Source: Candidatus Omnitrophota bacterium (GTDB lineage: Bacteria; Omnitrophota; Gorgyraeia; Aquiviventales; Aquiviventaceae). Taken from it: a DNA stretch of 64,000 nt. The notes beneath the pieces are model-generated. The model saw nothing but the letters and a program-made list of their open reading frames with translations. It searched no databases and was not told the DNA's origin. Shown piece by piece: positions 6,001 to 59,341 of this stretch. The position numbers and the translations under genes were made by a program. Numbering within the stretch: position 1 is the first letter of the stretch; each line of letters opens with the position of its first letter. Where the stretch lies: contig JACPSQ010000086.1 of the NCBI GenBank assembly GCA_016193195.1, positions 17,299-81,298 on the forward strand, written 5' to 3'.

Positions 6001-6693
6001 ATGGAACTGAGCACCTACCGGGATATGCACCTCCTCGATGAGGTCACCCGGAATCCCACCGTGACCCAGCGAGAGCTCGCCAAGCGCATCGGGGTCGCCT
6101 TAGGCCTGGCCAACCTGATGCTGCGCCGCCTGACCAAGAAGGGCTACATCAAAATCAGCGGCACGAAGCGCAGCCGCATCCGCTACCTCATTACCCCGCA
6201 AGGCATCCTTGAGAAATCCCGCTTGACCTACGAGTTCGTCCAATATTCCCTCCAACTCTATCATCGCGTCCGCCATTTCTGGCGCGAGCAGCTGGCGACC
6301 ATCGCCCAAACCCCCCAGCGGCGGATCCTGCTCTTCGGCGCTGGCGAGCTGGCCGAGATCGCCTTCCTGACCATTCAGGAAATGGGCTTGGACTTCGTCG
6401 GCGTCGCCCAGGAGGCGGCCGATGAACGACGGTTTCTCGGCTATCCCGTTCAGGACATCCGCACGGTGGCACCGGACCGTTACGATTGGATGCTGGTCAC
6501 GGCCTTGCAGGACGACGGGTTGTCGACTCGCTTGCAGGAGCTGGGCGTGCCGCCGGAGCAGATGATCGTGTTGACCAGGCCAGGGCAGGCCAGGCCGGCC
6601 ATCGAGCGACGCAGCATCGAACAGATGGCCGTGGCCACCACGGCGCCCGTGCCGGTGCCGACGGCTCCCGTTGAAGCGGAGATCGCGGCATGA
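6001..6693 (+). CDS. Winged-helix transcriptional regulator with a C-terminal Rossmann-like domain
   Basis: The N-terminus TQRELAKRIGVALGLANLMLRRLTKKGYIK is an HTH. The C-terminal ILLFGAGELAEIAFL...DFVGV is a nucleotide-binding-like domain. It is the first gene of the plus-strand array. Confidence 0.55.
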   Translation: MELSTYRDMHLLDEVTRNPTVTQRELAKRIGVALGLANLMLRRLTKKGYIKISGTKRSRIRYLITPQGILEKSRLTYEFVQYSLQLYHRVRHFWREQLATIAQTPQRRILLFGAGELAEIAFLTIQEMGLDFVGVAQEAADERRFLGYPVQDIRTVAPDRYDWMLVTALQDDGLSTRLQELGVPPEQMIVLTRPGQARPAIERRSIEQMAVATTAPVPVPTAPVEAEIAA

Positions 6694-7256
6694 AACGCGC
6701 GGTGTTTCTGGATCGGGACGGCGTGCTCAATCAGGCGGTCGTGCGGGACGGCAAGCCATACGCGCCGGCCTCCCTGGAGGAGTTGGCGATCGTGCCCGAT
6801 GCCGCGGAGGCGATCACGACCTTGCGCCAGGCGGGGTTTCTCGCCATTGTCGTGACGAACCAACCCGATGTCGGCCGCGGCCTCCAACGCCGTGAGACGG
6901 TCGAAGCGATGCATCAGCGGCTCCGCGCGCAGCTGCCCATCGATGACATCCGGGTCTGTTATCACCGGGAGGAAGACGCCTGCGCGTGCCGGAAACCGAA
7001 ACCGGGGATGCTGCGCGACGCGGCCCGTGACTGGGATGTGGACCTGAGCCGCTCGATCATGGTGGGGGACCGGTGGCGGGACATCGAGGCGGGCAAAGCG
7101 GCCGGATGCCGCACGATTTTGGTGCGGAGCCCGTGGGCGGAGCAACAGGCCCAGGCTCCCGACGCGGTCGTGGCGTCCCTGCACGAAGCCAGCCGGCTGA
7201 TCCTGTCAGCGTGGATCAGCCGCCGACCCTACGGAGCAGCGCATGCCCAGGCTTGA
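6690..7256 (+). CDS. gmhB: D-glycero-D-manno-heptose 1,7-bisphosphate phosphatase-like HAD phosphatase (GmhB family)
   Basis: AVFLDRDGVLN (DxDGT motif I), VVTNQPDVGRG, and CYHREEDACACRKPKPGML (the GmhB zinc-binding cysteine loop plus KPxPGM). Confidence 0.8.
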   Translation: MKRAVFLDRDGVLNQAVVRDGKPYAPASLEELAIVPDAAEAITTLRQAGFLAIVVTNQPDVGRGLQRRETVEAMHQRLRAQLPIDDIRVCYHREEDACACRKPKPGMLRDAARDWDVDLSRSIMVGDRWRDIEAGKAAGCRTILVRSPWAEQQAQAPDAVVASLHEASRLILSAWISRRPYGAAHAQA

Positions 7257-8007
7257 GGAGTTACGGGTCAAGATCTTTGCGGACGGGGCGGACCTTGCGA
7301 CCATCGCGGAGCTCGCCAAGCATCCCTACATCAGGGGCTTCACAACCAACCCAACCCTGATGCGCAAGGCGGGTGTGCCGGACTACCGCCGGTTTGCTCG
7401 CGAGGTGCTGACGCTGGTGCCAGATCGCCCCGTGTCGTTTGAGGTCTTCTCGGATGATTTCCCCGAGATGGAACAGCAGGCGCTGGAGATCGCCTCGTGG
7501 GGCGACAATGTCTATGTCAAGATTCCGGTGACGAATACGCGCGGGGCGTTTTCCGGCCCGCTCATTAAGCGGCTCTCCGAAGCCGGCGTCAAGCTGAACG
7601 TGACCGCCCTGCTGACGAGCGAGCAGGTGGGCCGCGTCACCGACTGTTTCTCGCCGGGGAGGAGCAGCTTTATCTCGGTGTTCGCGGGACGGATCGCCGA
7701 CACCGGCCGCGACCCCGTGTCCCTCATGGCCGAGTCGCTGCGGCTGATGGCCAGCCGCCCACAGGCCGAGCTGATCTGGGCCAGCCCCCGCGAGCTGCTC
7801 AACGTGATCCAGGCTGACGCCATCGGCTGCCACATCATCACCGCCACCAGCGACATCTTGGCCAAGCTCTCCTTGATCGGGAAGGATCTGTCGGAACTCT
7901 CGTTGGACACGGTGCGGATGTTTCGGCAGGATGCGCTCCAGGCGGGTTTTACGATTGAGCTCAGCCAGGCCGAGGCGGTCGGCTCGGCGGCCGCCGCCCC
8001 GCGATGA
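7243..8007 (+). CDS. Transaldolase / fructose-6-phosphate aldolase family protein
   Basis: KIFADGADL...GFTTNPTL, VYVKIPVT, and the NVTALLT Schiff-base-lysine region are typical of TalC/FSA-type transaldolases. Confidence 0.75.
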   Translation: MPRLEELRVKIFADGADLATIAELAKHPYIRGFTTNPTLMRKAGVPDYRRFAREVLTLVPDRPVSFEVFSDDFPEMEQQALEIASWGDNVYVKIPVTNTRGAFSGPLIKRLSEAGVKLNVTALLTSEQVGRVTDCFSPGRSSFISVFAGRIADTGRDPVSLMAESLRLMASRPQAELIWASPRELLNVIQADAIGCHIITATSDILAKLSLIGKDLSELSLDTVRMFRQDALQAGFTIELSQAEAVGSAAAAPR

Positions 8008-9041
8008 AGCCGCCGTCTCCTCGACCGGTGCTGGTGACGGGCGGCGCCGGCTATGTCGGCTGCGTGCTCGTCCGAAAGCTGCTGGAGGCCGGCTACCCGG
8101 TGACCGTGTATGACCTGATGCTCTTCGGCGATGCGGGGTTGCCCACCCACGCCGCCCTGCGCGTCGTCAAGGGAGACATCCGCGATCTTCCGACGCTTGC
8201 CGCGGCGGTGCGGGGCGCGCACAGCGTGATTCATCTGGCCTGCATTTCCAACGACCCGAGTTTCGAATTGGATCCGGTGCTGGGCAAGTCGATCAACTAC
8301 GACAGCTTTGAGCCGTTGGTGCGGACCTGTAAAGCGGGTGGTGTGCGGCGATTTATCTATGCCTCCACCAGTTCGGTCTATGGGGTCAGCGACGCCCCGG
8401 ACGTCACCGAGGAACACCCCTTGGTGCCCTTGACGGATTACAATAAGTACAAGGGCTTGTGCGAGCCGATCCTCCTGCGCTACCAGTCGCCGGACTTTAC
8501 CACGGTGATCCTTCGGCCCGCCACGGTCTGCGGCCCTTCGCCGCGGATGCGCTTTGATCTGACCGTGAATATCCTCACCAACCATGCCGTGAATCGGCGT
8601 GTCATCACCGTCTTTGGCGGGACGCAGCGACGGCCGAACATCCATATCGAGGACATCGCCGAGCTCTACGTCAAGCTGCTGGAGTACCCGGACGGCTTGA
8701 TTGCCGGGGAGACCTTCAACGCTGGCTACCAGAATCACACCGTCGGCGAATTGGCTCACCTGGTCCGCCAGGTCGTCGAACAAGAGATGCCGCAGCCGGC
8801 ACCCATTCAGATCCAGACCAGCCCAACCGACGATCTCCGTTCCTACCATGTCTCATCCAGAAAAATCGCCGAGCGGCTTGGCTATGTTCCCGCGCGGACT
8901 ATTGAGGACGCCGTTCGCGATCTCTGTCGCGCCTTCACGGCAGGCAGGTTTCCCGACAGCCTGACCGATGAGCGGTACTTCAACGTGAAAGCGGTCAAGC
9001 GGATGACGCCCACCCTGCTCATGGAGCCGGTCGGCTCTTGA
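8004..9041 (+). CDS. NAD-dependent nucleotide-sugar epimerase/dehydratase (extended SDR)
   Basis: [15 protein letters not shown] Rossmann motif, with YASTSSVYG and YNKYKGLCE (YxxxK). Confidence 0.8.
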   Translation: MKPPSPRPVLVTGGAGYVGCVLVRKLLEAGYPVTVYDLMLFGDAGLPTHAALRVVKGDIRDLPTLAAAVRGAHSVIHLACISNDPSFELDPVLGKSINYDSFEPLVRTCKAGGVRRFIYASTSSVYGVSDAPDVTEEHPLVPLTDYNKYKGLCEPILLRYQSPDFTTVILRPATVCGPSPRMRFDLTVNILTNHAVNRRVITVFGGTQRRPNIHIEDIAELYVKLLEYPDGLIAGETFNAGYQNHTVGELAHLVRQVVEQEMPQPAPIQIQTSPTDDLRSYHVSSRKIAERLGYVPARTIEDAVRDLCRAFTAGRFPDSLTDERYFNVKAVKRMTPTLLMEPVGS

Positions 9042-10033
9042 TGCCGCAGCAGGTTGCAGTCGTGACTGGAGGGGCGGGGTTCATCGGCAGCCACATGGTG
9101 GACCTGCTGTTGGACCGCGGCTTCGACGTGCGAGCGATTGACAATCTTGCCTGCGGGCGTCGGGAAAACCTCGCGCACCAGAACGGCCACCCCCGCCCGG
9201 TGTTTGAGGCCCGGGATGTGCGGGACCTGCGTCCCGGCGACCCCTTGTTGGAGGGGGCCGACTATGTCTTCCATTTCGCGGGGATCGGAGACATCGTCCC
9301 GTCGATTGAGCGGCCGACCGAGTACCTGTCCTCCAATGTCATGGGCACGGTCTGCGCCCTCGAGGCGGCCCGGTGGGCGAAGGTGAAGAAGTTCATCTAT
9401 GCCGCCTCCTCCTCCTGCTACGGCCTGGCCACTGAGCTGCCGACCACGGAGCAGGCTCCCATCAGTCCTCAGTATCCCTACGCGCTGAGCAAGTACCTTG
9501 GCGAACAAGCCGTCATGCATTGGGGCAAGGTCTATCAGTTGCCGGTGATCTCCCTGCGCATCTTCAACGCCTATGGCCCGCGCTCGCGCACGACCGGCGC
9601 CTACGGCGCCGTCTTTGGAGTCTTCCTGGCGCAGAAGCTCGCCGGGAAGCCGTTCACGGTAGTAGGCGACGGAACGCAGCGTCGGGATTTCGTCTTTGTA
9701 ACCGATCTGGCAAAGGCGTTTCTACTCGCGGCTGAGTCCGATTGCACGCAAGACATCTTCAACGTCGGGGCTGGCCAGCCGCAGTCAGTGAATCGACTCG
9801 TGGAGCTGTTAGGCGGTGAAGTCGTCCATGTGCCCAAGCGCCCTGGAGAGCCGGATTGCACGTGGGCCGATACGACACGCATCCGGACAATGCTTGGATG
9901 GGTGCCGACGGTGTCGTTTGAAGCAGGCGTCAAGACCATGTTGGGCTCGATTGACGATTGGCGCGCCGCACCGGTGTGGGATGAGACGGCGATTGCAGAG
10001 GCAACGGCATCATGGTTCAAGTATCTGAAATAA
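9038..10033 (+). CDS. NAD-dependent nucleotide-sugar 4-epimerase-like (extended SDR)
   Basis: [23 protein letters not shown] and YALSKYLGE (YxxxK). The start overlaps the preceding stop (ATGA). Confidence 0.8.
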   Translation: MMPQQVAVVTGGAGFIGSHMVDLLLDRGFDVRAIDNLACGRRENLAHQNGHPRPVFEARDVRDLRPGDPLLEGADYVFHFAGIGDIVPSIERPTEYLSSNVMGTVCALEAARWAKVKKFIYAASSSCYGLATELPTTEQAPISPQYPYALSKYLGEQAVMHWGKVYQLPVISLRIFNAYGPRSRTTGAYGAVFGVFLAQKLAGKPFTVVGDGTQRRDFVFVTDLAKAFLLAAESDCTQDIFNVGAGQPQSVNRLVELLGGEVVHVPKRPGEPDCTWADTTRIRTMLGWVPTVSFEAGVKTMLGSIDDWRAAPVWDETAIAEATASWFKYLK

Positions 10034-11721
10034 CCGACGTCCGGTTGGAGAGTTCCCGCCCGGCTGTTGTCCTGGCGCTGCCGCTGAAGCGCGCGTTGGA
10101 GCGGTTGCTCCTGTGCAATCGGATCCGCGAGCTGGCGGACTACCGGATGACACCGGTGACGGTGAAGGATCTGCGCGGCATAGGAGGTCTCTTAGCATTC
10201 CTGGTTCGCGTGGTGGACCCATCCGGTATCCGGGCGCGTCGCTCCGGAGCGATTCAGCTTCTCATGGACGTCTGGATCATCATCACGCTCCGGCTGCTCC
10301 TGTTGTTCCGGAGGCATCGGATCGGGGAAGACCTGCGCTCGACCGTGGGTGTCCTCTGCCGAGCCGTGCTGTTCCGGCACCAGCGCTACGCGGCCCGTCC
10401 AACCACTGAGATGGTGCCGCACGTGCGGTGTTCCGAGAAGGAGGAGCTGTTGATCCGATCCTGCCTGTTGCTGCGCACCATGCAGCGGTACGGGCCATGC
10501 ATTGAATTCCTCATCCAGCGCCTCACCTCCGGGCTACCGGCTGCCGAGACGCGGCGATGGCTCGCCTTCTTCCTGCGTGAGATTGGGGATGACACCGCGG
10601 CTGACGCGTTGCTGACGATGGAGCCCGCGGCATCCGAAGCCACCGTCATCCACCACCTGGAAGTTCCAAAGCCTCCGGCGCAACATGCGCCGAGGCGACT
10701 CAAATACGGCCTGTACGTGATGACGGTGTTCGATTCGGACGTCTTCCGCAGCTCGCTGCTGAGCCTTATGAACAGTGATTACGACGGCCAGATCGTCGTG
10801 GCCGAAGACGGCTACCTTCCAAACAAGGTCTGCGAGGCATTTTGCCGGGAGGTCGGTGTTCCCTATATCAAGAACCCGGAGTGGACGTACACCCAGCCGT
10901 TGGCGAACCTGGCGATTCAGGCGTTTGATGAGGATACCGACATTCTGCTCCAGGCGCCGAACGACGTGCTCTGGCCCCCCCGCTGGTTTGGTCAACTTGA
11001 TGGGGCCTGGAAGCGGGTCTTTGACACTGGAAAGGTTGGTGGACTGACCATGAGTGCTGTGCAATTTGACGCCTCCGTGGAGCCTATGCTCAAAGAGGCG
11101 TTTGTGAGGGGGCGTTATGAAGGCCTGTTGTGGGTCTTAAAAATGCGGGCACAGGTTCACCCCTGGCTGGATTGGTATCGTGAAGCCCTGCCTCACGATG
11201 GGAGCCAGCTGTTTGGGTTGCCCAAGGATCTCTACACCGACGATGTGACCAGGCTCTTGTGGAAAGTTGCCTATGGAGGGGCGGTTTCGACCTTCTCCCG
11301 AACCCTCTGGACGGAAGTCAACAGGGTGCCATCACAGATGCGCGCCAATCTTGATCTGGAACTGGGCTACCAGTGTTGGACAAGCCGACGATGGTTCCTC
11401 GCCGTCAATAACACGCCTCTCATTCATATGATAGGACAGGATAGCCGTCGATTGACCGGCCGTGATAAGGTGCTTAAGGTGCGAGTGAAGGAAATGTTCA
11501 AGCAGGATGACGCGCTCTTCAGACAAAAGTACGGCGAGGACTGGTACCCACCCTATTGGTATTTTTCTGGCGAGAGCTGCATGATTTACCACGACGAGAT
11601 TCTGCGTGCGGTCAACGAGGGACGATTTGACGAGATCGACTTCGTGTTTGATGATTTCGAAGCCCGACGGAAGGGACGGTACTGGGCCTGTTCGCTCCCC
11701 TCGCTTTCACGCTCACAGTGA
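10012..11721 (+). CDS. Hypothetical protein (possible divergent GT-A-like domain)
   Basis: 569-aa ORF with no motif I can assign. The central YGLYVMTVFDSD...IVVAEDGY is faintly GT-A/DxD-like. The true start may be internal (ATG at 10147). Confidence 0.35.
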   Translation: MVQVSEITDVRLESSRPAVVLALPLKRALERLLLCNRIRELADYRMTPVTVKDLRGIGGLLAFLVRVVDPSGIRARRSGAIQLLMDVWIIITLRLLLLFRRHRIGEDLRSTVGVLCRAVLFRHQRYAARPTTEMVPHVRCSEKEELLIRSCLLLRTMQRYGPCIEFLIQRLTSGLPAAETRRWLAFFLREIGDDTAADALLTMEPAASEATVIHHLEVPKPPAQHAPRRLKYGLYVMTVFDSDVFRSSLLSLMNSDYDGQIVVAEDGYLPNKVCEAFCREVGVPYIKNPEWTYTQPLANLAIQAFDEDTDILLQAPNDVLWPPRWFGQLDGAWKRVFDTGKVGGLTMSAVQFDASVEPMLKEAFVRGRYEGLLWVLKMRAQVHPWLDWYREALPHDGSQLFGLPKDLYTDDVTRLLWKVAYGGAVSTFSRTLWTEVNRVPSQMRANLDLELGYQCWTSRRWFLAVNNTPLIHMIGQDSRRLTGRDKVLKVRVKEMFKQDDALFRQKYGEDWYPPYWYFSGESCMIYHDEILRAVNEGRFDEIDFVFDDFEARRKGRYWACSLPSLSRSQ

Positions 11722-11725
11722 ACCG

Positions 11726-13279
11726 ATGCCAGAGCTAACCACTGACGTGCGAACGAGCAGTCGTGAGCTCAAGTGTCTGGAGCTCGATCGATTGGCGGAG
11801 CATCTCGCACGCTTGCGAGGTGAGGGGAAGAAGATTGTCTTGTGTCACGGCGTATTCGACCTCCTCCACATCGGGCACGTTCGATATTTTCAACGCGCCA
11901 AGCAACTGGGTGACGTCCTGGTGGTGACGGTGACCCCCGATCGTTTTGTCAACAAAGGTCCCCAACGACCAGCCTTTTCTGAATCGCTGCGCATAGAAGC
12001 CCTTGCCGCACTGGAATGCGTCGACCATGTCGCCCTGAATCGGTGGCCGATGGCGGTGGAAACCATCCGCTTGCTGCAACCTCATGTCTATGTGAAGGGG
12101 CCGGATTACAAAGACCCTGACAACGATCACACAGGCGGGATTGTCCTTGAGGAGGCTGCTGTCAAATCCGTGAATGGACAGCTGGTGATTACCGATGACA
12201 TCACCTTCAGTGCTTCTCATCTGATCAATCGGCACCTGCCGTTGTTGTCCCAGGAAGCGACGCAGTTCCTTGAGCGTTTTTCATCCCGGTATACCTCAGC
12301 AGAGGTGCTTTGCTACCTGGAACAGGCACGTCCGCTGAAGGTCTTGGTTGTCGGAGAGGCCATCATCGACGAATATCAATACTGTGAATCTATTGGCAAA
12401 TCATCGAAGGAGCCAATGCTCGCCGTCAAGCGTCTTGCCATGGAACGGTTTGCCGGTGGGACCCTTGCGGTGGCCAACCACGTCGCGAACTTTTGCGATC
12501 AGCCGGGGCTCATCACCTTCCTTGGAGTGGATGATCCGAAGGAAACGTTCATTCGAGAGAAGCTGAATCCCAACGTCCAGCCGCGGTTTCTGTATCGGGC
12601 AGGCGCTCCCACGATTGTGAAACGCCGATTCATCGACCAGTATTTCTTTACGAAATTCCTGGAGGTGTATGAGATCAACGACGAGGCTTGGGACCCGCGT
12701 GATCATGACGTCTTGTGTGAGGAGTTGCGTACCCAAGTCCCGAACTACGATGTCGTGCTGGCCGTGGACTTTGGCCACGAGATGTTCAGTCGAGAGGCGA
12801 TTGATCTTGTCTGTGAGAAGGCAAAGTTCCTTGTCGTCAACACGCAGTGTAACGCTGGCAACCTCGGCTACCACTCCATCTCCAAGTATCCACGGGTGGA
12901 CTATGTCTGTCTGGCGGAGAGGGAGCTTCGGCTCGAGATGCGGGATCGTCGAGGGGATCTCAAGTCGTTGATTCAGCAGATTGCCCAGCGGCTTCGGTGT
13001 CCTGTGACGGCCACCCGCGGCGCCTATGGATGCCTCTCCTACAGTGAAAAGGATGGTTTTGTGGAGGTGCCGGCGTTCGCCAATCAGGTGGTGGACCGGA
13101 TGGGCGCCGGGGATACCTTTCTGTCGCTGGCGGCCCTGTGTGTCGCGGCGAAGGCGCCGCTTGAGATCGTCGGGTTCATCGGCAATGTCGCGGGAGCAGA
13201 AGCCGTCGCCACCGTGGGTCACCGCACGTCGATCGAGCGGGCGAGGTTCTTCAAGCACATTGAATCCTTACTCAAGTGA
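11726..13279 (+). CDS. Bifunctional heptose-1-P adenylyl(cytidylyl)transferase / PfkB sugar kinase with REVERSED HldE domain order
   Basis: N-terminal KKIVLCHGVFDLLHIGHVRYFQRAKQLGDVLVVTVTPD is the RfaE domain II (HxGH nucleotidyltransferase). The C-terminus carries the PfkB signature DRMGAGDTFLS. E. coli HldE has kinase first and transferase second. Confidence 0.75.
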   Translation: MPELTTDVRTSSRELKCLELDRLAEHLARLRGEGKKIVLCHGVFDLLHIGHVRYFQRAKQLGDVLVVTVTPDRFVNKGPQRPAFSESLRIEALAALECVDHVALNRWPMAVETIRLLQPHVYVKGPDYKDPDNDHTGGIVLEEAAVKSVNGQLVITDDITFSASHLINRHLPLLSQEATQFLERFSSRYTSAEVLCYLEQARPLKVLVVGEAIIDEYQYCESIGKSSKEPMLAVKRLAMERFAGGTLAVANHVANFCDQPGLITFLGVDDPKETFIREKLNPNVQPRFLYRAGAPTIVKRRFIDQYFFTKFLEVYEINDEAWDPRDHDVLCEELRTQVPNYDVVLAVDFGHEMFSREAIDLVCEKAKFLVVNTQCNAGNLGYHSISKYPRVDYVCLAERELRLEMRDRRGDLKSLIQQIAQRLRCPVTATRGAYGCLSYSEKDGFVEVPAFANQVVDRMGAGDTFLSLAALCVAAKAPLEIVGFIGNVAGAEAVATVGHRTSIERARFFKHIESLLK

Positions 13280-14265
13280 AGAGATACGGCATGACGCCGG
13301 AAGCCCAAAGGATGCGGTGGTTGTATTACAACCTGCTCAGGATTCGTATGGTGGAGGAGACTATTGCGCAACGTTATGCGCAGCAGGAGATGCGTTGCCC
13401 TATCCATCTGTGCATTGGTCAGGAAGCGATCGCGGTCGGAGTCTGCGCCCACCTGGCTCGCGAGGACTACGTGTTGAGCGGGCATCGTTCGCACGGGCAC
13501 TACCTGGCCAAGGGCGGCGATCTCAATGCCATGGTCGCAGAACTCTATGGCAAGGCAACGGGGTGCGCCGGAGGCCGCGGCGGTTCGATGCATTTGATAG
13601 ACCTCTCCGCTGGATTTTTGGGCGCAACCCCGATTGTGGCCGCCTCCATTCCGATCGCCGTGGGGGCGGCGTTAGGGTCGGTCATGCAAAAAGAGCCTCG
13701 AGTGACCGTGATCTTTTTCGGCGACGCAGCCCCGGAGGCCGGGGCGTGTCACGAGAGTCTGAATTTCGCGTTGCTCAAGCGCCTGCCAGTCGTCTTCGTG
13801 TGCGAAAATAACCTGTATTCCGTCTATTCGCCGATGTCGGTTCGTCAACCTGAAGGCAGACCGCTTGCCTCGCTCGCTGCTGGACATGGGATGGCCACGT
13901 ACCGGGGCGACGGCAATGATGTGTTCAGCGTCTCTGCCATCGCGCAGGAGGCCATCCGGCAGGTGAGGGATGGTGGGGGACCGATGTTTCTCGAGTTCAT
14001 GACCTACCGCTGGCGGGAGCACTGCGGCCCCTACTATGACAACGACCTCGGCTACCGAAGCGAGCAGGAATTTCAAGACTGGAAGCAGCGGTGCCCGGTT
14101 GCGCGGTGCCGAGAACGCCTCCTCCGTGAAGGCATCCTCACTAGCCAGGATCACGAAGAGATCGTTCGGACGTTGGAACGCGAGATTGACGCGGCGTTTC
14201 GTTTCGCCAAGGAAAGCCTTTTTCCTGAAGCTCAGGAACTCTTGGAGCACGTGTACGCGCCATGA
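13276..14265 (+). CDS. ThDP-dependent dehydrogenase E1 component, alpha subunit
   Basis: CPIHLCIGQEA...GHRSHGHYLAKG...GGRGGSMH are E1-alpha ThDP-binding motifs. Start is either GTG 13276 or ATG 13291. Confidence 0.8.
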   Translation: MKRYGMTPEAQRMRWLYYNLLRIRMVEETIAQRYAQQEMRCPIHLCIGQEAIAVGVCAHLAREDYVLSGHRSHGHYLAKGGDLNAMVAELYGKATGCAGGRGGSMHLIDLSAGFLGATPIVAASIPIAVGAALGSVMQKEPRVTVIFFGDAAPEAGACHESLNFALLKRLPVVFVCENNLYSVYSPMSVRQPEGRPLASLAAGHGMATYRGDGNDVFSVSAIAQEAIRQVRDGGGPMFLEFMTYRWREHCGPYYDNDLGYRSEQEFQDWKQRCPVARCRERLLREGILTSQDHEEIVRTLEREIDAAFRFAKESLFPEAQELLEHVYAP

Positions 14266-15323
14266 TGAGAGAACTGAAGTTCTACGAAGCGATTCGCGAG
14301 GCGCTCGACCTGTGTCTGGCCAAGGACCCGCGAGTCTACCTGATGGGGCTCGGCGTGCCGGATCCAAAGGGCATCTTTGGGAGCACCCTTGGGCTCCAGC
14401 AACGATACGGCTCATGGCGGGTGATGGATATGCCTACCTCAGAAAACGGGATGACGGGAATTGCCATCGGCTCAGCCCTCAACGGGATGAGGCCGGTGTT
14501 AAGCCACCAGCGTGTGGATTTCTCATTGTTGGCGATGGAGCAGATGGTCAACCAAGCCGCCAAGTGGCGGTACATGTTTGGCGGCAGGCACAGCGTCCCA
14601 GTGGTCATCCGCATGATCATCGGACGCGGATGGGGACAGGGACCACAACACTCCCAGAGCCTTCAGGCGTGGTTCGCCCACATTCCTGGTTTGAAGGTGG
14701 TCATGCCGACCACCCCCTATGACGTGAAAGGTCTCCTCATTTCGAGCATTGAAGATGATAACCCCGTCATCGTGTTGGAGCATCGGTGGCTCTACACCAT
14801 CGTGGGGGAGGTTCCTGAGGGGCTCTACCGTGTGCCGTTAGGGCAAGCCAAGGTGGTACGGGGGGGTCAGGATCTGACGATCGTCGCAACGTCCTACATG
14901 GTGCTCGAAGCGCTTCGGGCCGCGGAACTCTTGGCTGAGCAGGGGATTGCGGCAGAGGTCATCGACGTGCGAAGCCTCAGACCATTGGATGGTCGGGCTA
15001 TTCTCGAGTCGGTGTGCAAGACAGGGCACCTGATCGTTGCAGATGCGGCTTGGACAACCTGCGGGTTCGCGGCGGAGATCGTGGCCTTGGTCTGCGAGCA
15101 TGCGTTCGAGCATCTCAAGCGTCCTCCTCGTCGGGTGACGCTGCCGGACTGTCCTTGTCCGAGCAGCGCGGCATTAGCCAATGACTACTATCCACGGTCC
15201 GTTCATATCGTCGCGGAGGCAAACGCGTTATTAGGGGTGTCCGGCAAGCCGGGTCTGGCTTCGGAGGCGGTATCCTCGGTGCCGCTGGATGTGCCCGATT
15301 TGAACTTCACGGGACCGTTCTGA
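14262..15323 (+). CDS. ThDP-dependent dehydrogenase E1 component, beta subunit (transketolase-like)
   Basis: MGLGVPDPKGIFGSTLGLQQRYG...SENGMTGIAIGSAL is the pyrimidine-binding domain, followed by a C-terminal transketolase_C-like domain. The start is ATGA-coupled to the alpha subunit. Confidence 0.8.
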   Translation: MMRELKFYEAIREALDLCLAKDPRVYLMGLGVPDPKGIFGSTLGLQQRYGSWRVMDMPTSENGMTGIAIGSALNGMRPVLSHQRVDFSLLAMEQMVNQAAKWRYMFGGRHSVPVVIRMIIGRGWGQGPQHSQSLQAWFAHIPGLKVVMPTTPYDVKGLLISSIEDDNPVIVLEHRWLYTIVGEVPEGLYRVPLGQAKVVRGGQDLTIVATSYMVLEALRAAELLAEQGIAAEVIDVRSLRPLDGRAILESVCKTGHLIVADAAWTTCGFAAEIVALVCEHAFEHLKRPPRRVTLPDCPCPSSAALANDYYPRSVHIVAEANALLGVSGKPGLASEAVSSVPLDVPDLNFTGPF

Positions 15324-15324
15324 C

Positions 15325-16401
15325 ATGGCTGATACGCGACGGATCGTCGTCATTGGAAGCAATTCGTTCTCGGGCAGTGACTTCATCGACCTGCTGCTGG
15401 AGGACCCGCGCAACGAAGTGATTGGGATCAGCCGCTCGCCTGAGAAGAGCGCCACCTTCCTTCCCTACAAACGGCGGCAGGGGGCTGCCTTCACGTTCTC
15501 TCAAATAGATGTGAACCGCAACATGTCAGAGCTGGTTCGCCTCCTTGACGACCGGAAGCCCAGCGTTGTGGTCAATTTCGCGGCGCAGAGCGAGGTGGCG
15601 CCGAGTTGGGACTATCCAGAGCAGTGGTTCCAGACCAACGTGGCCTCCCTGGTGGCCCTGGCGAATTACTTGAAAGACCAGTCATGGTGTTGGCGCTATG
15701 TCCACATTTCTTCACCGGAAGTGTATGGGACCTGCGTCGGGCGCGTCCGAGAAGATGCGCCGTTGAATCCCAGTACGCCGTATGCCGCTTCAAAAGCGGC
15801 CGCAGACCTGTTCCTGTTCACTTTGGTCAAGCAGTTCCGGTTTCCTCTCATTATGATCCGCGCCACCAACGTCTACGGGGCTGGCCAGCAGCCATGGAAG
15901 ATCATTCCAAAATCGATGATTTCGCTCAAGCGAGGGCAGACCATCCCCCTGCATGGTGGCGGAGTGGCCGTGAAGTCCTATATCCATATCCGGGACGTGT
16001 CACGCGGCGAGCTGGCTGCGATGGAGATCGGGACTCCGGGCTCGATCTATCACTTGTCTCCGGACCGTGGGTATGCGGTGCGGGAGGTGGTGGAGCGAAT
16101 CTGCGTACTGCTGGGCCGCGACAGGACGGTTACGACTACTGTGGTTGGTGAGCGTCCCGGACAGGATGCCGCGTACGTGATTGATTCCACGCGGGCCCGA
16201 ACCATGCTTGGCTGGGAACCGAAGGTCTCGCTGGACGAAGGATTGGCGGATGTGAAGCAATGGGTCGAGCGGTATTGGGACGTCCTCAAGGACGTTCCGC
16301 TGGAATATCAGCATCAGTCTGAACGCTATGCATTGGTGCCGCTTGAGGAGCGGGAGACGTTGGCGGCATCTGGGTCAGGTGAGCGGGGCGGGCGGCGATG
16401 A
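15325..16401 (+). CDS. NDP-sugar 4,6-dehydratase-like extended SDR
   Basis: IVVIGSNSFSGSDF, HISSPEVYG and YAASKAAAD (YxxxK). It resembles CDP-/GDP-hexose 4,6-dehydratases. Confidence 0.7.
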   Translation: MADTRRIVVIGSNSFSGSDFIDLLLEDPRNEVIGISRSPEKSATFLPYKRRQGAAFTFSQIDVNRNMSELVRLLDDRKPSVVVNFAAQSEVAPSWDYPEQWFQTNVASLVALANYLKDQSWCWRYVHISSPEVYGTCVGRVREDAPLNPSTPYAASKAAADLFLFTLVKQFRFPLIMIRATNVYGAGQQPWKIIPKSMISLKRGQTIPLHGGGVAVKSYIHIRDVSRGELAAMEIGTPGSIYHLSPDRGYAVREVVERICVLLGRDRTVTTTVVGERPGQDAAYVIDSTRARTMLGWEPKVSLDEGLADVKQWVERYWDVLKDVPLEYQHQSERYALVPLEERETLAASGSGERGGRR

Positions 16402-22389: not shown

Positions 22390-22390
22390 T

Positions 22391-30311: not shown

Positions 30312-30312
30312 C

Positions 30313-31245
30313 ATGGCGATGAGAATCGTGGTTATCGGACTTGGCGTCCAAGGGCGCAAGCGCATGGCCGTCGCGAAGGATGAGGTCGTGGCGACCGTTG
30401 ACCCTGTGGTTGAGGAGGCGACCTTCCACGCGATTGAAGAGGTGCCGCTGGACTCATTCGATGCGGCGCTGGTTTGCACACCTGATCACACCAAGGCGGG
30501 CCTCTTGCGGTATCTCCTGTCCCATCGCAAGCATGTCCTGGTCGAGAAGCCGTTGGTGTCCGCTGACGTCGAGACGTTGCGGGAGTTCGAGACACTGGCA
30601 CGCGAGAGCTACGTGGCCTGCTACACGGCCTACAACCATCGGTTTGAGCCGCATATCGTGCGGATGAAGGCGCTTCTCGATGCCGGGACGCTTGGGCCGC
30701 TCTATCTCGTGCGAGGCTTCTACGGCAACGGGACGGCGCGCGATGTCCGGAGCTCCCTCTGGCGAGACCAAGGGCGCGGGGTGTTGTCGGATCTCGGCTC
30801 GCATCTGTTGGACATTGGCTTGTTTCTGTTCGGTGAGATCGATGGCAAGTTTGAGTTATGGAGCGCGAATCGGTTTGAGAATGAGGCCTTTGATCACGTG
30901 CTGTTTGGGGTGACCGGCAGGCCGGTGATGGAGTGGGAGGGAACATTCGTTGCCTGGCGCAATACGTTTACGCTCGATGTGTTCGGCGAACGGGGCAGTG
31001 CGCATATCCATGGGCTCTGCAAGTGGGGCCCAAGCCGCTTCATCCTTCGGCATCGAGTCTTGCCCAGCGGGCGACCCTCAGAACACGTGGACACGTTGGA
31101 GCAAGCCGATCCCACCTGGGCCTTGGAATATGCCTATTTCAAGCAATTGTGCCGAAGCGGAGGGACCAACCTGGAGAACGATATCTGGATTGCGGCGGTG
31201 TTGCACGGACTGGATCGTGCGATCGGACACGAGGTGCCGGCATGA
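30313..31245 (+). CDS. Gfo/Idh/MocA family NAD(P)-dependent oxidoreductase
   Basis: MRIVVIGLGVQGRKR Rossmann motif, with a GFM_C-like C-terminal domain. Confidence 0.75.
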   Translation: MAMRIVVIGLGVQGRKRMAVAKDEVVATVDPVVEEATFHAIEEVPLDSFDAALVCTPDHTKAGLLRYLLSHRKHVLVEKPLVSADVETLREFETLARESYVACYTAYNHRFEPHIVRMKALLDAGTLGPLYLVRGFYGNGTARDVRSSLWRDQGRGVLSDLGSHLLDIGLFLFGEIDGKFELWSANRFENEAFDHVLFGVTGRPVMEWEGTFVAWRNTFTLDVFGERGSAHIHGLCKWGPSRFILRHRVLPSGRPSEHVDTLEQADPTWALEYAYFKQLCRSGGTNLENDIWIAAVLHGLDRAIGHEVPA

Positions 31246-32543
31246 TCGGATTTGCCGGGCTCTCGCACCTGGGGATTGTTTCCAGCATCGTCGCCGCCTC
31301 AAAAGGCCATGACGTCGTCGCCTTTGATCCTGACGTCACGCGATGTGAAGCGCTTCGGCGAGGGCAGTTGCCGGTGGTGGAGCCTGGTCTCCAGGAGTTG
31401 CTGGCATCCGCCCGACCACGGATTCGGTTTACCAGCGATCCTCAAGCCCTTGCCGCATGCGCCGTGGTGATCTGTGCGGAGGATGTGCCCACGAGCGTGG
31501 ACAACACAAGCGAGTTTGGGCCCATCAACCGGCTGTTAGATACCGTCGAACAACAAGCCGCTCCAGGAATGAGCGTGGTCGTGCTGAGCCAGGTGCCGCC
31601 TGGATTCACCAGACAGTTGGCACGGAGATGGGCTGATCGGCGTCTGGAGGTGTTCTATCAGGCCGAGACCTTGATTTTCGGTCAGGCTGTGGAGCGGGCG
31701 CTCTCTCCGGAGCGGATGATTGTCGGCTGCGCAAGACCGCAACAGGCGCTTCCGGAGGCGTATGCGAACCTGCTGGCCAGTTTCAGCTGCCCGATTCTGC
31801 CGATGCGCTATGAAAGCGCTGAACTGGCCAAGATTGCCATCAACATGTTTCTCGTCTCGTCGGTCTCGACTACGAACATACTGGCGGAGTTGTGCGAGGC
31901 GATTGGGGCGGATTGGTCGGAGATCATCCCCGCGCTGCGATTGGATGCGCGCATCGGGCCGCGGGCCTATGTCACTCCGGGGCTTGGTCTGTCGGGAGGC
32001 AATCTCGAACGGGACCTCTCGACTTTCAGTCGCTTGGCTCAGGCGGCCGGAACAGATGCCCGGATGGTCGAGGCCTGGTTGGTCAATAGCGCGCACCGAC
32101 AGGGCTGGGTGTTGACGACGCTCGCCCGCGAGGTCTTGTCCTGTCAGACGGATCCCATGATTGCGGTCTGGGGCCTGGCCTATAAACCGCATACCCACTC
32201 CACGAAAAACTCCCCGGCACTGGCGTTGTTGGAAACCTTATCCGGCTCCGGCATCCGGGTGCAGGCCTACGATCCGGCCATCCGGCTCACGCGTCCAGAC
32301 TGGCCTCGGTTCACCCAGGTGTCCACGCCGCTGGAGGCATGTGGGGAAGCGGACGCCTTGGCGATTCTGACGTCTTGGCCGGAGTTTGCATCGGTGGATC
32401 TGACACGCGTCGCTCGGATCATGAGAGGCCGTCTGGTCATTGATCCATTGGGGATGCTGGACCCGGCAGGCTGTCAGGAGACCGGCCTGCGGCAGCGGCG
32501 CCTGGGAGTGCCGACATTGACGGAGGACCCCGTCCTATGCTGA
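31242..32543 (+). CDS. Nucleotide-sugar 6-dehydrogenase (UDP-glucose/GDP-mannose dehydrogenase family)
   Basis: MIGFAGLSHLGIV at the N-terminus and the central and C-terminal UDPG_MGDP_dh domains. ATGA-coupled. Confidence 0.75.
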   Translation: MIGFAGLSHLGIVSSIVAASKGHDVVAFDPDVTRCEALRRGQLPVVEPGLQELLASARPRIRFTSDPQALAACAVVICAEDVPTSVDNTSEFGPINRLLDTVEQQAAPGMSVVVLSQVPPGFTRQLARRWADRRLEVFYQAETLIFGQAVERALSPERMIVGCARPQQALPEAYANLLASFSCPILPMRYESAELAKIAINMFLVSSVSTTNILAELCEAIGADWSEIIPALRLDARIGPRAYVTPGLGLSGGNLERDLSTFSRLAQAAGTDARMVEAWLVNSAHRQGWVLTTLAREVLSCQTDPMIAVWGLAYKPHTHSTKNSPALALLETLSGSGIRVQAYDPAIRLTRPDWPRFTQVSTPLEACGEADALAILTSWPEFASVDLTRVARIMRGRLVIDPLGMLDPAGCQETGLRQRRLGVPTLTEDPVLC

Positions 32544-33454
32544 CCCACGCGTCGGAGGCGCCAAGCAGGCCGCGTCGAGTCGTGGTGCTTGGGGCGTCAG
32601 GGTTCGTCGGGGCGGACCTGATCGAGCATTTGCGAGGGCATGAGGTGCCGACACTGCCGCTGTCTTCCGCTGACGTGGATCTTCGCCAGGCTGAATCGGT
32701 GGAGCGGTTGGTACAGCTCGTCGACGAGGGGGACAGCCTCGTCATCGTGTCAGCCCTGACGCCTGACAAAGGCAAGGATGTCAAGACCTTCATGGCCAAT
32801 CTGACCATGGGAGCCCATGTGAGCGCGTTCCTCAGTCGCGTCCGGCTGGCCCAGGTGGTCTATGTCAGCTCCGACAGCGTGTATGATGATCAGGCCTCGC
32901 TCATCGACGAGACCACGCGGTGTGCTCCACAGACCTTCCACGGCCTCATGCATCTGGCTCGAGAGCGCATGGTGACTTCGGCCCTCCAGCCGTTGAAGAC
33001 GCCGTTGCTGATTATCCGCCCATCCCTGTTGTATGGGGCCCGTGATTCCCACAACGGCTACGGGCCGAATCGATTTCTGCGCTCAGCCAGGGAAGAGGCG
33101 CGCATTGAGCTGTTTGGCCAGGGTGAGGAAACGCGCGACCACGTCTATATCAAGGACTTGAGCCGATTGATCGGCCTCGGGTTGCTGCATGGGAGCCAGG
33201 GCGTGCTCAATGTCGCGACTGGACAGTCTGTGTCCTTCCGGAAAGTGGCTGAGCTGGTGGCCTCCATGGCTGACCACCCGGTTTGGATCGAGTGCCGACC
33301 ACGGACAGGCCCGATCAGCCATCGGCATTTTGATATCAAGACCCTCCTCAGCCGATTTCCGACGTTCCGCCTGACCCCGTTGCAGGAAGGCCTGGCCGAC
33401 ACGCTGCGGCAGATGAAGGCTTCTGCTGAAAAAACCATGCCGATCGCGGTCTGA
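32537..33454 (+). CDS. NAD-dependent epimerase/dehydratase family protein
   Basis: VVVLGASGFVGADL and YVSSDSVYD. Confidence 0.7.
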   Translation: MLTHASEAPSRPRRVVVLGASGFVGADLIEHLRGHEVPTLPLSSADVDLRQAESVERLVQLVDEGDSLVIVSALTPDKGKDVKTFMANLTMGAHVSAFLSRVRLAQVVYVSSDSVYDDQASLIDETTRCAPQTFHGLMHLARERMVTSALQPLKTPLLIIRPSLLYGARDSHNGYGPNRFLRSAREEARIELFGQGEETRDHVYIKDLSRLIGLGLLHGSQGVLNVATGQSVSFRKVAELVASMADHPVWIECRPRTGPISHRHFDIKTLLSRFPTFRLTPLQEGLADTLRQMKASAEKTMPIAV

Positions 33455-33457
33455 ACG

Positions 33458-34312
33458 ATGAGCACGACGCCACCAGAAGTTATGGCCGTTCCCCAGGCCG
33501 CCAGACGATTCGATGTGGAGGACTCGAAGCACCGGTGTGTTCGGTTCCGGAAACGCATCCTTGAAATCTCCCAGACCGTGACGGCATTGCACATCGGCGG
33601 GTCGTTTTCCTGCTTGGAGATGCTCGACACGATCTATTTCGGCCTGATGCGTCGAGACGGCCCCTCGCCTGATACGTTCATCCTGTCCAAGGGGCATGGA
33701 TCGATGGCGCAGTATGTGGTGTTGGAAGAGCTCGGGATCCTCTCGCGAGCAGACCTGGCGTTGTACTCTAAACCCGGCGGACGGATCGCCACCCATCCTG
33801 ACTATGGGACCCCGGGGATCGAAGCCTCGACCGGCTCACTTGGCCATGGCCTCGGGATGGCGCTCGGGATGGCCTTGGCGGATAAGGTCGCCGGCATCGA
33901 CCGTCATGTGTACGTGGTGATGAGCGATGGGGAAATGCAAGAAGGGTCAGTCTGGGAAGCCATGATGCTGGCGCCATCGCTGAAGCTCACCAACCTCATC
34001 GCCTTTCTCGATCTCAATGATTTTCAGTCTCTCGGCCAGACGAGCAAGATCCTTCCCAACTTTTATCCCGTGCGCGACAAGGTGACCGCCTTTGGGTGGG
34101 AGGCGGCTGAGGTGAATGGGCATGATGCCCAGGCGGTCTATCAGGCTGTCCAAGCTCGGAAAGGGTCGGTGCCCTTTCTGCTGATTGGACGAACCGTCAA
34201 GGGCAAGGGCGTCAGTTACATGGAACACGTTCCCATGTGGCACTACCGCTCTCCCTCGCCTGAGGAATATCAGCGGGCCCTGCAGGAATTGGATGGTGGT
34301 GAACTACGATGA
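33458..34312 (+). CDS. Transketolase, N-terminal subunit (second pair)
   Basis: GGSFSCLEMLDTIYF...ILSKGHG...GSLGHGLGMALGMAL...VVMSDGEMQEG. Confidence 0.8.
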   Translation: MSTTPPEVMAVPQAARRFDVEDSKHRCVRFRKRILEISQTVTALHIGGSFSCLEMLDTIYFGLMRRDGPSPDTFILSKGHGSMAQYVVLEELGILSRADLALYSKPGGRIATHPDYGTPGIEASTGSLGHGLGMALGMALADKVAGIDRHVYVVMSDGEMQEGSVWEAMMLAPSLKLTNLIAFLDLNDFQSLGQTSKILPNFYPVRDKVTAFGWEAAEVNGHDAQAVYQAVQARKGSVPFLLIGRTVKGKGVSYMEHVPMWHYRSPSPEEYQRALQELDGGELR

Positions 34313-35223
34313 GGGACGCGTTTGCGCGGGCGCTCTATCAGTTCGCCAAGCAGGATCCGAGGATCTTCATCATCGTCGCGGACATCTCTCCGGCCGGGAG
34401 CATGGCCCAGTTTCGGACGGAATTTCCAGAGCGCTTCGTCAACGTGGGCGTGGCGGAACAAAGCATGATCGGGATGTGCGCCGGACTGGCCATGCGGGGA
34501 TGCCGCCCGTTTGCCTACACGATCGCGACGTTTTCCATCTATCGGCCGTTCGAGTATGTGAGGGATGACCTCTGCTACCAGAACCTTCCGGTGACGGTGG
34601 TGGGCATCGGCGGCGGGGTGGCCTATTCGACGCTTGGGGGGACTCACCATGCGCAGGAAGACATTGCCATGATGTCGGCGTTGCCCAATATGTCGATCGT
34701 GGCCCCGTGCGATCCTCGAGAGACCGAAGCCGCTGTCGGGGCATGTGTTCGCCACGGTGGGCCGGTCTACCTGCGGTTGGGCAAGGCCGGTGAGCCCGAC
34801 CTGACGGCCAACGCCCTGGAGCCATTTCAATTCGGGAAACTTCGTCTCCTGAAGGAAGGGTCGGACGTCTGCCTCCTATCCTATGGGCCCATGACGGCTC
34901 TGGCGTTTGAGGTGGCTGCTCGCCTTGAAGCTGAGGGGTGTTCGGTTGCGGTGATGACCTGCCCCACACTCAAGCCGTTAGATACGGAGGGCCTCGTGCG
35001 GGTGCTGCGCCGATTCCACACTGTCGTCGTGGTCGAAGAGCATTCTGAACGCGGCGGCCTGGCTGTCCAAGTGAAGGCGCTGGCATGGGAGTCTGGGGCG
35101 AGCTGTCGCCTGGAGACCTTCAGCTTGAAGGATGCCTTCATCCATTTCTTCGGGACTCAACGCCAGATGTGGGGGGAGCATGGCCTCACCGCGGATGCCA
35201 TTTACACAAGGATTCGGGCATGA
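34309..35223 (+). CDS. Transketolase, C-terminal subunit (second pair)
   Basis: A pyrimidine-binding and C-terminal domain, ATGA-coupled to 33458-34312. Confidence 0.8.
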   Translation: MRDAFARALYQFAKQDPRIFIIVADISPAGSMAQFRTEFPERFVNVGVAEQSMIGMCAGLAMRGCRPFAYTIATFSIYRPFEYVRDDLCYQNLPVTVVGIGGGVAYSTLGGTHHAQEDIAMMSALPNMSIVAPCDPRETEAAVGACVRHGGPVYLRLGKAGEPDLTANALEPFQFGKLRLLKEGSDVCLLSYGPMTALAFEVAARLEAEGCSVAVMTCPTLKPLDTEGLVRVLRRFHTVVVVEEHSERGGLAVQVKALAWESGASCRLETFSLKDAFIHFFGTQRQMWGEHGLTADAIYTRIRA

Positions 35224-37309: not shown

Positions 37310-37319
37310 AAGGAGACCC

Positions 37320-46627: not shown

Positions 46628-47218
46628 ATGGACGAGCAGCGGTGGCTGGCGAGCTATTTCGAGCAGTACCGTCCCATGCTCTTTCAGGAGGCGATCCTTG
46701 AGCAGCTTGTGGAACTCAAGAGGCTCTTGATCGCCGCCCGGGAGGCGGGCAAGAAGGCGGTCTTCGCCGGCAACGGCGGCAGCGCCGCGATCGCCAGCCA
46801 CTGCGCGGTGGATTTCACGAAGAATGCCGGGATCCGTTGCGTCAATTTCAACGAGGCGGACCTGATCACCTGTTTCGCGAACGACTACGGCTACGAGCGC
46901 TGGTTGGAGAAAGCGCTGGGGTTCTATGCCGATCCCGGCGATGTCGTCATCCTCATCAGCTCAAGCGGGCAATCCAAGAACATGGTCAATGCCGCCCTCT
47001 ACGCGGCGGCGAGAAGACTTGCCGTCGTGACCTTCACTGGGTTTTCCTCGGATAACCCGCTGCGTGCATTGGGACGACTGAACTACTGGGTGGACAGCCG
47101 CGCCTACAACGTGGTTGAGATGACGCATCAGATTTGGTTGTTGGCGGTGTGCGATCTCATCATCGGGGCGGCGGAATATCCGGCCTCACGCGCCGAGTCC
47201 GGCGCGGTGGCGGTGTGA
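46628..47218 (+). CDS. SIS-domain sugar-phosphate isomerase (GmhA / PtmF-like)
   Basis: VFAGNGGSAAIASHCAVDF and ILISSSGQSKN are GmhA-family motifs. Confidence 0.75.
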   Translation: MDEQRWLASYFEQYRPMLFQEAILEQLVELKRLLIAAREAGKKAVFAGNGGSAAIASHCAVDFTKNAGIRCVNFNEADLITCFANDYGYERWLEKALGFYADPGDVVILISSSGQSKNMVNAALYAAARRLAVVTFTGFSSDNPLRALGRLNYWVDSRAYNVVEMTHQIWLLAVCDLIIGAAEYPASRAESGAVAV

Positions 47219-51697: not shown

Positions 51698-51713
51698 AAG
51701 GAGGCAGGCGCGG

Positions 51714-51917
51714 ATGCCCAAGTTTCTGAAAGGGAACTACCGGTTGCCGAAAGGCAAGGCCACACTAGCAAGGAAACAGGCGCGCAAGGATCTGACCCAG
51801 CAATTCGAGGAACGCGCGCTGGCGAAGCTGGGAGGAAGCCTCTGCTTCGTCATGAAGAAAGGGACGTTCGTCTGGACCGACGAGGCTGATGAAGGCGCTC
51901 GCCAAGCATCTGGTTGA
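51714..51917 (+). CDS. Small basic hypothetical protein (67 aa)
   Basis: A strong Shine-Dalgarno (AAAGGAGG, 51697-51704) lies 9 nt upstream of the ATG. The N-terminus is Lys/Arg-rich. No known domain. Confidence 0.3.
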   Translation: MPKFLKGNYRLPKGKATLARKQARKDLTQQFEERALAKLGGSLCFVMKKGTFVWTDEADEGARQASG

Positions 51918-52914: not shown

Positions 52915-52917
52915 GCC

Positions 52918-59180: not shown

Positions 59181-59204
59181 CAGGCTGCGGAAATACTCGG
59201 CTCA

Positions 59205-59313: not shown

Positions 59314-59341
59314 CAGCACCCTGCTAGACTAACACCGTGCG

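Follow-up and report, generated by a model that had tools for sequence, protein, structure and literature searches.

We analysed a 64,000-nt stretch of DNA (hereafter the window) from a metagenome-assembled genome (MAG) of Candidatus Omnitrophota, which carries two genes, at 11726-13279 and 28755-30311, for bifunctional enzymes related to HldE (RfaE). In both predicted proteins, referred to here as paralogs A and B, the nucleotidyltransferase (NTase) domain precedes the PfkB kinase domain. Sequence comparison sets A and B apart as a separate branch of the HldE superfamily, permuted in domain order and widespread. We consider it probable, at roughly 65%, that both perform HldE-type chemistry, converting an aldose phosphate into a nucleoside diphosphate (NDP)-sugar, and that each supplies a tailoring pathway of its own.

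Domain order and relationship of the two paralogs

The two open reading frames (ORFs) occupy exactly the positions at which a sequence-only reading of this DNA had placed them, and their products are exact database matches (MBI3011640.1 for A and MBI3011656.1 for B) on an 82-kb contig of the MAG. Each ATG start (11726 and 28755) lies 5 nt past the stop codon of the upstream gene, the start and stop codons of both genes are closely coupled to the adjoining genes, and the protein lengths, 517 and 518 aa, agree with those of homologues (507-522 aa). Long ORFs on other frames overlap A, at 11735-12235 and 12401-13258 on the minus strand and at 13026-13811 on the plus strand, but their codon-position G+C pattern is that of non-coding frames in high-G+C DNA, and they were therefore taken as artefacts.

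Pfam profiles detected CTP_transf_like at residues 40-130 of A (E 2.4e-14) and 36-136 of B (E 1.4e-10); the PfkB matches span residues 205-504 of A (E 3.2e-20) and 232-493 of B (E 3.6e-22). The scores place both proteins in both families, with 54.1 (A) and 41.9 (B) bits for PF01467 against a gathering threshold of 21, and 73.1 (A) and 79.5 (B) bits for PF00294 against a threshold of 25.8. The reference for the domain swap, and the only canonical sequence compared, was HldE of Escherichia coli K-12 (hldE at L088:5321-6754, minus strand). BLASTP aligned A with this protein crosswise, residues 22-129 of A with 329-436 of HldE (43% identity) and residues 206-501 of A with 13-302 of HldE (24%), and the same crossed pattern was obtained for B (35% in the NTase half and 24% in the kinase half). 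Neither paralog therefore has the HldE order of an N-terminal PfkB and a C-terminal NTase domain. The Pfam coordinates and the crossed alignments thus bear out the earlier claim that the HxGH-bearing NTase domain is N-terminal and the GAGD-bearing PfkB domain C-terminal, opposite to HldE/RfaE.

When aligned to each other, A and B are collinear along their full length, with 30% identity over 477 aa (E 6e-51), and this match, like those to HldE, is far beyond chance. Local alignment scores reached 235 and 245 between A and B, against 153-187 between either paralog and HldE. The higher scores between A and B fit an origin of both from a single fusion event followed by an old duplication. A recent duplication was ruled out by the 30% identity, the separate orthologues and the separate synteny of the two genes. 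The reversed order is most simply explained by a separate gene-fusion history, in which an NTase gene came to lie upstream of a kinase gene, with the chemistry probably being the same.

Family size and distribution

Database searches returned more than 6,000 significant matches for each query among 8,000 scored candidates. Identity was 60-67% for the top 120 matches of A and 69-79% for the top 120 of B, and the Pfam string PF01467,PF00294 was present in every one of them. Since identity between A and B is only 30%, yet each has orthologues of 60-79% identity across phyla, they are, on this comparison, two distinct, deeply diverged and large orthologous groups. Family-specific peptide patterns (CHG[VT]FDL[LV]H and similar), which are not present in E. 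coli HldE, retrieved at least 592 relatives among species-representative genomes. The best 80 of these are all full-length and all reversed, and by their record titles they include members from Chloroflexi, Verrucomicrobia, Planctomycetes, Nitrospirales, Desulfobacterota, Elusimicrobia, Bdellovibrionota, Alpha- and Gammaproteobacteria (Legionellaceae and Coxiellaceae among them), Saccharibacteria, Parcubacteria and Nanoarchaeota. B-specific patterns matched at least 544 metagenome contigs.

Cultured strains are represented among the best 80 relatives by Terasakiella sp. PR1 and Paramagnetospirillum caucaseum SO-1, and full-length A-type genes were found on two complete plasmids of cultured bacteria, pDCAR1 of Solidesulfovibrio carbinolicus and a plasmid of Azospirillum oryzae. 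The orthologues of these two species are WP_129356083.1 (S. carbinolicus DSM 3852) and WP_149200362.1 (A. oryzae KACC 14407). Both plasmid genes are named "PfkB family carbohydrate kinase" by PGAP, and the names in the source databases include this one as well as "rfaE bifunctional protein", "adenylyltransferase/cytidyltransferase family protein" and "ADP-heptose synthase". The rarity of the reversed order that the sequence-only reading had implied is refuted by these thousands of relatives, which are already in databases under automatic HldE-like names; among environmental bacteria the layout is very common.

Kinship with HldE, HldA and HldC

Among the NCBIfam models, the best for the NTase domain was TIGR02199 (rfaE_dom_II), with 102.4 bits for A and 87.0 for B, under its cut-off of 181.5, and the best for the kinase domain was TIGR02198 (rfaE_dom_I), with 93.5 and 131.9 bits, under its cut-off of 345. 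The runner-up kinase model scored 29-35 bits, so that rfaE_dom_I was ahead by about 60-100 bits. The NTase halves are 35-44% identical to that of E. coli HldE. By sequence, the closest solved structures are HldC (5x9q) for the NTase half and HldA (4e84) for the kinase half. An AlphaFold (AF2) model of A, built on 97 sequences (pLDDT 88, pTM 0.78), was compared with the PDB using Foldseek, and matched HldA with E 1.4e-20 and a TM-score of 0.82 normalized to the target, with other PfkB kinases at about 1e-15. In the predicted model, the PfkB domain of A thus has a ribokinase-like fold. No two-domain match to the model was found in the PDB, the query-normalized TM-score being at most 0.52.

A motif survey of 97 family members (59 A-type and 38 B-type) revealed five invariant elements: H48xG50H51, R81P82, K124GxxY128, G244G245 and G460AGD463. 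The HxGH motif of the NTase domain and both the GG lid and the catalytic Asp of GAGD in the PfkB domain are therefore intact, and A and B look catalytically competent and HldE-like, without being HldE equivalogs. The family also has features of its own in the NTase domain, namely an invariant His within a "CHG" directly ahead of FDLLHxGH, about 25 additional residues after KGxDY relative to HldE, and [FY]-S-[SA]-S in place of the HldE G-x-S-T-T. The last of these puts an aromatic residue where an Arg has been reported to give NTP promiscuity. Whether the transferase is adenylyl- or cytidylyl-specific cannot be read from the sequence, as had been stated before.

Conserved neighbourhoods of the two types

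Gene neighbourhoods were compared by tblastn of the window proteins against 83 A-type and 82 B-type loci. A-type cassettes were counted in those 41 A-type loci that extend for 5 kb or more to each side. Their usual order is SDR (short-chain dehydrogenase/reductase), A, SIS, SDR, a two-subunit thiamine diphosphate (ThDP)-dependent enzyme, a methyltransferase and a Zn-alcohol dehydrogenase. The ThDP enzyme, either a split transketolase or an E1 alpha/beta pair, is present in 31 of the 41 loci, two SDR types in 25 and 26 of them and a GmhA-like SIS isomerase in 25, while neither a transaldolase nor a Gfo gene was found in any of the 41. The same cassette is present in the cultured A. oryzae and S. 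carbinolicus; in the latter, the A-type gene adjoins NeuB-family and pseF genes.

B-type loci are strikingly uniform in gene content, with the order SIS, HAD, transaldolase, SDR, SDR, B, Gfo, a protein like UDP-glucose dehydrogenase (UGDH), in some loci NUDIX, then SDR, ThDP enzyme and methyltransferase. Upstream of B, in the 32 loci with at least 5 kb on that side, a B-specific SIS isomerase was found in 17, a GmhB-like HAD phosphatase in 15, a transaldolase in 21 and both SDR types in 31. The SDR represented in the window by the gene at 9038 lies directly upstream of B in 55 of 61 loci. On the other side, a Gfo/Idh/MocA gene follows B directly in all 54 loci compared, and the two-subunit ThDP enzyme is present in 18 of the 24 loci with at least 8 kb downstream. 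GmhA-like genes thus accompany both types in many loci, and GmhB-like genes chiefly the B type; in the window they are represented by the SIS gene at 46628, 33 kb downstream of A, and the HAD gene at 6690.

The UGDH-like protein has Asn at the position of the cysteine in the Ugd GGYC motif (GGYC to GGN) in all 46 sequences compared, that is, the window protein and 45 homologues from B-type loci. Formation of a uronic acid through the usual thioester is therefore not possible, and the protein is unlikely to have this role. Next after the UGDH-like gene, 22 of the 82 B-type loci carry a gene for a NUDIX hydrolase (e.g. L002 14950-15402 and L084 9923-10432); one is present in the Azospirillum A-type locus and none in the window. 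Such a hydrolase might remove the nucleotide handle.

The window has a G+C content of 61% and consists, from about 6000 to 62600, of one long run of closely packed plus-strand genes (Table 1). Its B cassette is split, with a MarR gene, the HAD, transaldolase and two SDR genes at 6001-10033 and the rest (B, Gfo, UGDH-like, SDR and split transketolase) at 28755-35223. Between the second SDR gene and B, which are neighbours in most other loci, lie 18.7 kb (10012-28750, plus strand) with an unknown gene, A, the E1 alpha/beta genes, a dehydratase, a Zn-alcohol dehydrogenase, SDRs, two B12-radical-SAM genes, a C-methyltransferase, a split transketolase and methyltransferases. Because A lies in this segment between the two halves of the B operon, this genome appears to have an A-type cassette nested within a B-type operon. 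The unknown gene, a 569-aa ORF (10012-11721, plus strand) directly upstream of A, had no Pfam match and no homologue in the 165 related loci.

Table 1. Positions of A, B and associated genes in the window
Feature	Position	Strand	Remarks
HAD-IIIA phosphatase, GmhB-like	6690..7256	+	Pfam; synteny, B cassette; NF006506 140 bits (cut-off 178); TIGR01656 145 bits, above cut-off
Transaldolase, TIGR02134 type	7243..8007	+	340 bits (cut-off 282); conserved in the upstream part of the B cassette
Extended SDR, GalE-like	8004..9041	+	Flanks A-type and B-type genes elsewhere; 31/32 B loci, 25/41 A loci
Extended SDR, GalE/RmlB/LegB-like	9038..10033	+	Usual gene directly upstream of B
Paralog A, MBI3011640.1	11726..13279	+	517 aa; NTase ~11765-12235 (aa 14-170), PfkB kinase ~12317-13237 (aa 198-504)
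E1 alpha (13276-14265) and E1 beta (14262-15323), ThDP-dependent	13276..15323	+	Start overlaps the stop codon of A
Paralog B, MBI3011656.1	28755..30311	+	518 aa; NTase ~28779-29240 (aa 9-162), PfkB kinase ~29325-30284 (aa 191-510)
Gfo/Idh/MocA oxidoreductase	30313..31245	+	Begins 2 nt past the stop codon of B
UDP-glucose/GDP-mannose dehydrogenase-family protein, catalytic Cys to Asn	31242..32543	+	In 41/42 B loci
SDR (32537-33454) and split transketolase (33458-34312, 34309-35223)	32537..35223	+	Downstream B cassette
GmhA-like SIS isomerase	46628..47218	+	Orthologue of the A-adjacent SIS elsewhere; gmhA models 61-64 bits, under cut-off

Proposed pathway and alternative explanations

In the pathway that we favour, the C-terminal PfkB domain would phosphorylate the anomeric hydroxyl of an aldose phosphate delivered by the GmhA-like SIS isomerase, the aldose being heptose 7-phosphate or a longer homologue. 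A GmhB-like HAD phosphatase would then remove the distal phosphate, and the N-terminal HxGH domain would join the resulting sugar 1-phosphate to a nucleoside triphosphate (NTP), yielding the NDP-sugar. Adjacent SDR, ThDP-dependent, radical-SAM, methyltransferase and aminotransferase enzymes would remodel this product for a surface glycan. All four activities of the HldE route are encoded in the B cassette, and the A cassette has all of them except the phosphatase. Extended SDRs of the GalE/RmlB type and UGDH-family proteins act on anomeric NDP-sugars, and the presence of the four activities together with such neighbours points to NDP-sugars as the likely products of A and B. The sequence-only reading had taken the two copies as a sign of two substrates. 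They are indeed old paralogs, and their differing conserved neighbourhoods fit either different substrates or different pathways. A and B would accordingly be ancient paralogs serving two different cassettes, which in this genome are nested in one operon.

Several observations weigh against this pathway. The HldE equivalog model NF008454 scored only 148.3 (A) and 140.1 (B) bits against a cut-off of 521, the match being split into two stretches in each protein. The kinase halves share no more than 24-26% identity with that of E. coli HldE, so that a different phosphoryl acceptor is possible, and the PfkB NxxE motif has Ala, Thr or Ser instead of Asn (residue 397 of A, window position ~12914-12916) in 59 of 59 A-type sequences, while the Asn is retained in 38 of 38 B-type sequences. 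An HAD phosphatase gene is linked in only 5 of the 41 A loci, and the window itself contains no B-type SIS gene. Finally, no biochemically assayed member of the family was found in the full-text literature.

The most conventional alternative is that A and B are plain ADP-heptose synthases of the lipopolysaccharide (LPS) core, that is, HldE with swapped halves, the second copy being redundant. The annotations "ADP-heptose synthase" and "rfaE bifunctional protein", the GmhA-like and GmhB-like genes of the cluster and the status of HldA and HldC as best structural relatives would all agree with it. However, A and B fall below the HldE, rfaE_dom_I and rfaE_dom_II equivalog cut-offs alike, form distinct orthologous groups (30% identity between them against 60-79% within) and lie among NDP-sugar-remodelling enzymes rather than beside heptosyltransferase genes. 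Relatives also occur in Chloroflexi, Dehalococcoidia, Saccharibacteria, Parcubacteria and Nanoarchaeota, which to our knowledge lack LPS, and we regard this explanation as improbable. Even less probable, in our view, is the synthesis of a CDP-linked polyol or ketose, with the PfkB domain acting on a primary hydroxyl, the acceptor for most PfkB kinases, and the NTase domain resembling glycerol-3-phosphate cytidylyltransferase. The NTase domain does match TagD-type and ethanolamine-phosphate cytidylyltransferases, and the HAD gene is unlinked in most A-type loci, but the TagD model reached 33-44 bits against 87-102 for rfaE_dom_II, and the RP and KGxDY motifs are common to A, B and HldE. Moreover, the neighbouring GalE/RmlB-type extended SDRs and UGDH-family protein are of the NDP-sugar type, and the top structural match of the A model is HldA.

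A special case of the favoured HldE-type pathway, which we put forward only tentatively, is that the sugar activated by B, and possibly by A, is an octose and not a heptose. The transaldolase would make octulose 8-phosphate from ribose 5-phosphate, the SIS isomerase, B and the HAD phosphatase would convert this into an NDP-octose, and the Gfo-type and Cys-less UGDH-like enzymes would dehydrate its side chain, as in the GDP-octose route to lincosamides. In lincomycin biosynthesis, as summarized in table 2 of PMC4351081 and in PMC12945683, the transaldolase LmbR builds octulose 8-phosphate, LmbN isomerizes it, LmbP phosphorylates, LmbK dephosphorylates and LmbO makes GDP-octose, after which LmbM, LmbL, LmbZ and LmbS epimerize, 6,8-dehydrate and transaminate the octose. 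Set against this outline, the activities of the B cassette correspond gene for gene to LmbR, LmbN, LmbP plus LmbO (kinase and NTase) and LmbK, and they also parallel LmbM (epimerase), LmbL (dehydrogenase), LmbZ (oxidoreductase) and, in some loci, LmbS (aminotransferase). The Asn substitution in the UGDH-like protein, which precludes the usual thioester chemistry, agrees with the protein acting as a plain dehydrogenase in the manner of LmbL, and a dedicated transaldolase would be superfluous were ordinary sedoheptulose 7-phosphate the precursor. On the other hand, the transaldolase could equally supply sedoheptulose 7-phosphate, and the comparison with the Lmb proteins is one of activity lists, in which we presume LmbL to be of the UGDH family and LmbZ of the Gfo family; no LmbL-like or LmbZ-like entry was found in the PDB. 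LmbP and LmbO come from enzyme families other than those of A and B, and a pair of Gfo and UGDH-family proteins is also known from pathways of the WbpB/WbpA type, both of which count against an octose substrate.

Taking the HldE-type pathway a step further, A and B could be the entry enzymes of two widespread, uncharacterised pathways through which many uncultured phyla would make C-branched or higher-carbon NDP-sugars. B would provide an NDP-octose whose side chain is dehydrated, and A an NDP-heptose that enters ThDP-dependent two-carbon branching or extension; for either enzyme, the nucleotide donor might be other than ATP. We offer this extended scheme as a speculative possibility that is rather doubtful in its entirety.

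Other genes of the window

The operon encodes three two-subunit ThDP-dependent enzymes, all on the plus strand: the E1 alpha/beta pair at 13276-15323 and split transketolases at 23089-24917 and 33458-35223. Their number suggests repeated two-carbon transfer onto sugars. Three B12-binding radical-SAM proteins (18307-20346, 25381-27207 and 52918-54522) and one radical-SAM/SPASM protein (39736-41019) are also encoded on this strand. Two further plus-strand ORFs with no Pfam match, 36990-38165 and 37948-38601, recur as a pair, with 33-45% identity, by the A-type cassettes of loci L054, L058, L079 and L082.

Towards the end of the run, at 47660-62632 (plus strand), lies a module resembling those for the biosynthesis of nonulosonic acids of the legionaminic-acid type. 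It comprises genes for a Gfo protein, a CMP-sugar synthetase (CTP_transf_3), an SDR, NeuB, an MptE-like (Maf-type) protein, a NeuC-type 2-epimerase and a PglD-like acetyltransferase, together with a HisF/HisH-like pair, a CBS-NTP_transferase, a dehydratase and a DegT aminotransferase.

Significance and comparison with known systems

Automatic labels such as ADP-heptose synthase and PfkB kinase mask two separate, widespread groups that are tied to conserved sugar-remodelling cassettes. The domain order itself is of evolutionary rather than mechanistic interest, and most of the interest lies in the cassettes that it marks. If the function proposed here is true, these proteins mark clusters for unusual sugars, derived from heptoses or octoses, in Acidobacteria, Verrucomicrobia, Planctomycetes, Omnitrophota, Chloroflexi, bacteria of the candidate phyla radiation and others. 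If the B cassette should make an NDP-octose and dehydrate its side chain, lincosamide-type chemistry would be far commoner in nature than the antibiotic pathway suggests. NDP-heptoses are agonists of innate immunity, and the identity of the nucleotide used by A and B would extend the catalogue of their producers. The cultured carriers make the function of A and B testable.

No characterisation of the reversed layout or of its cassette was found in the full-text literature, although most papers in subscription journals are outside its coverage, which makes this weak evidence. By its own criterion, the sequence-only reading would be refuted if the reversed order turned out to be common and its bearers had already been characterised as ordinary ADP-heptose synthases. 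The order did prove common; its characterisation did not emerge, as no study was found, the order is not among the published classes and the HldE equivalog cut-offs were not reached. The reversed layout thus represents a large, automatically annotated branch of the HldE superfamily that is apparently uncharacterised and comprises two conserved subfamilies.

With HldE, A and B share the same two domain families, each half being most similar to the matching half of HldE, the HxGH, RP, KGxDY, GG and GAGD motifs and the linkage to GmhA-like and GmhB-like genes. They differ from it in their reversed order, in scores far under the equivalog cut-offs, in the CHG and [FY]S[SA]S signatures and the extra stretch of about 25 residues, and in being embedded in sugar-remodelling cassettes. 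HldA and HldC of Burkholderia (4e84 and 5x9q) are the best solved relatives of the two halves, for the kinase also by fold, but they are a separate heptose kinase and adenylyltransferase, whereas A and B are fused; were an hldC-like gene to fuse with an hldA-like gene lying downstream of it, the layout of A and B would result.

Among the published classes of heptose nucleotidyltransferases (HENases) within the NDP-heptose biosynthetic enzymes (HBEs), which stem from a recent cross-kingdom survey (Tang et al., as summarized in the commentaries PMC11573728 and PMC11461863), the NTase occurs alone, as kinase/NTase or as isomerase/kinase/NTase. A and B follow the same logic of four activities (isomerase, kinase, phosphatase and nucleotidyltransferase) that these summaries describe, but their NTase/kinase order is absent from the classes listed there. 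In addition, the Arg position to which the same two summaries attribute NTP promiscuity is occupied by Phe or Tyr in A and B.

The lincosamide GDP-octose pathway, as outlined in the sources given above, resembles the B cassette in that the same list of activities is held in one operon. It differs in that the kinase and NTase of B belong to other families and are fused, in the ThDP-dependent step that is added in the B cassette, and in the hosts, which for the B cassette are environmental Gram-negative bacteria and candidate phyla.

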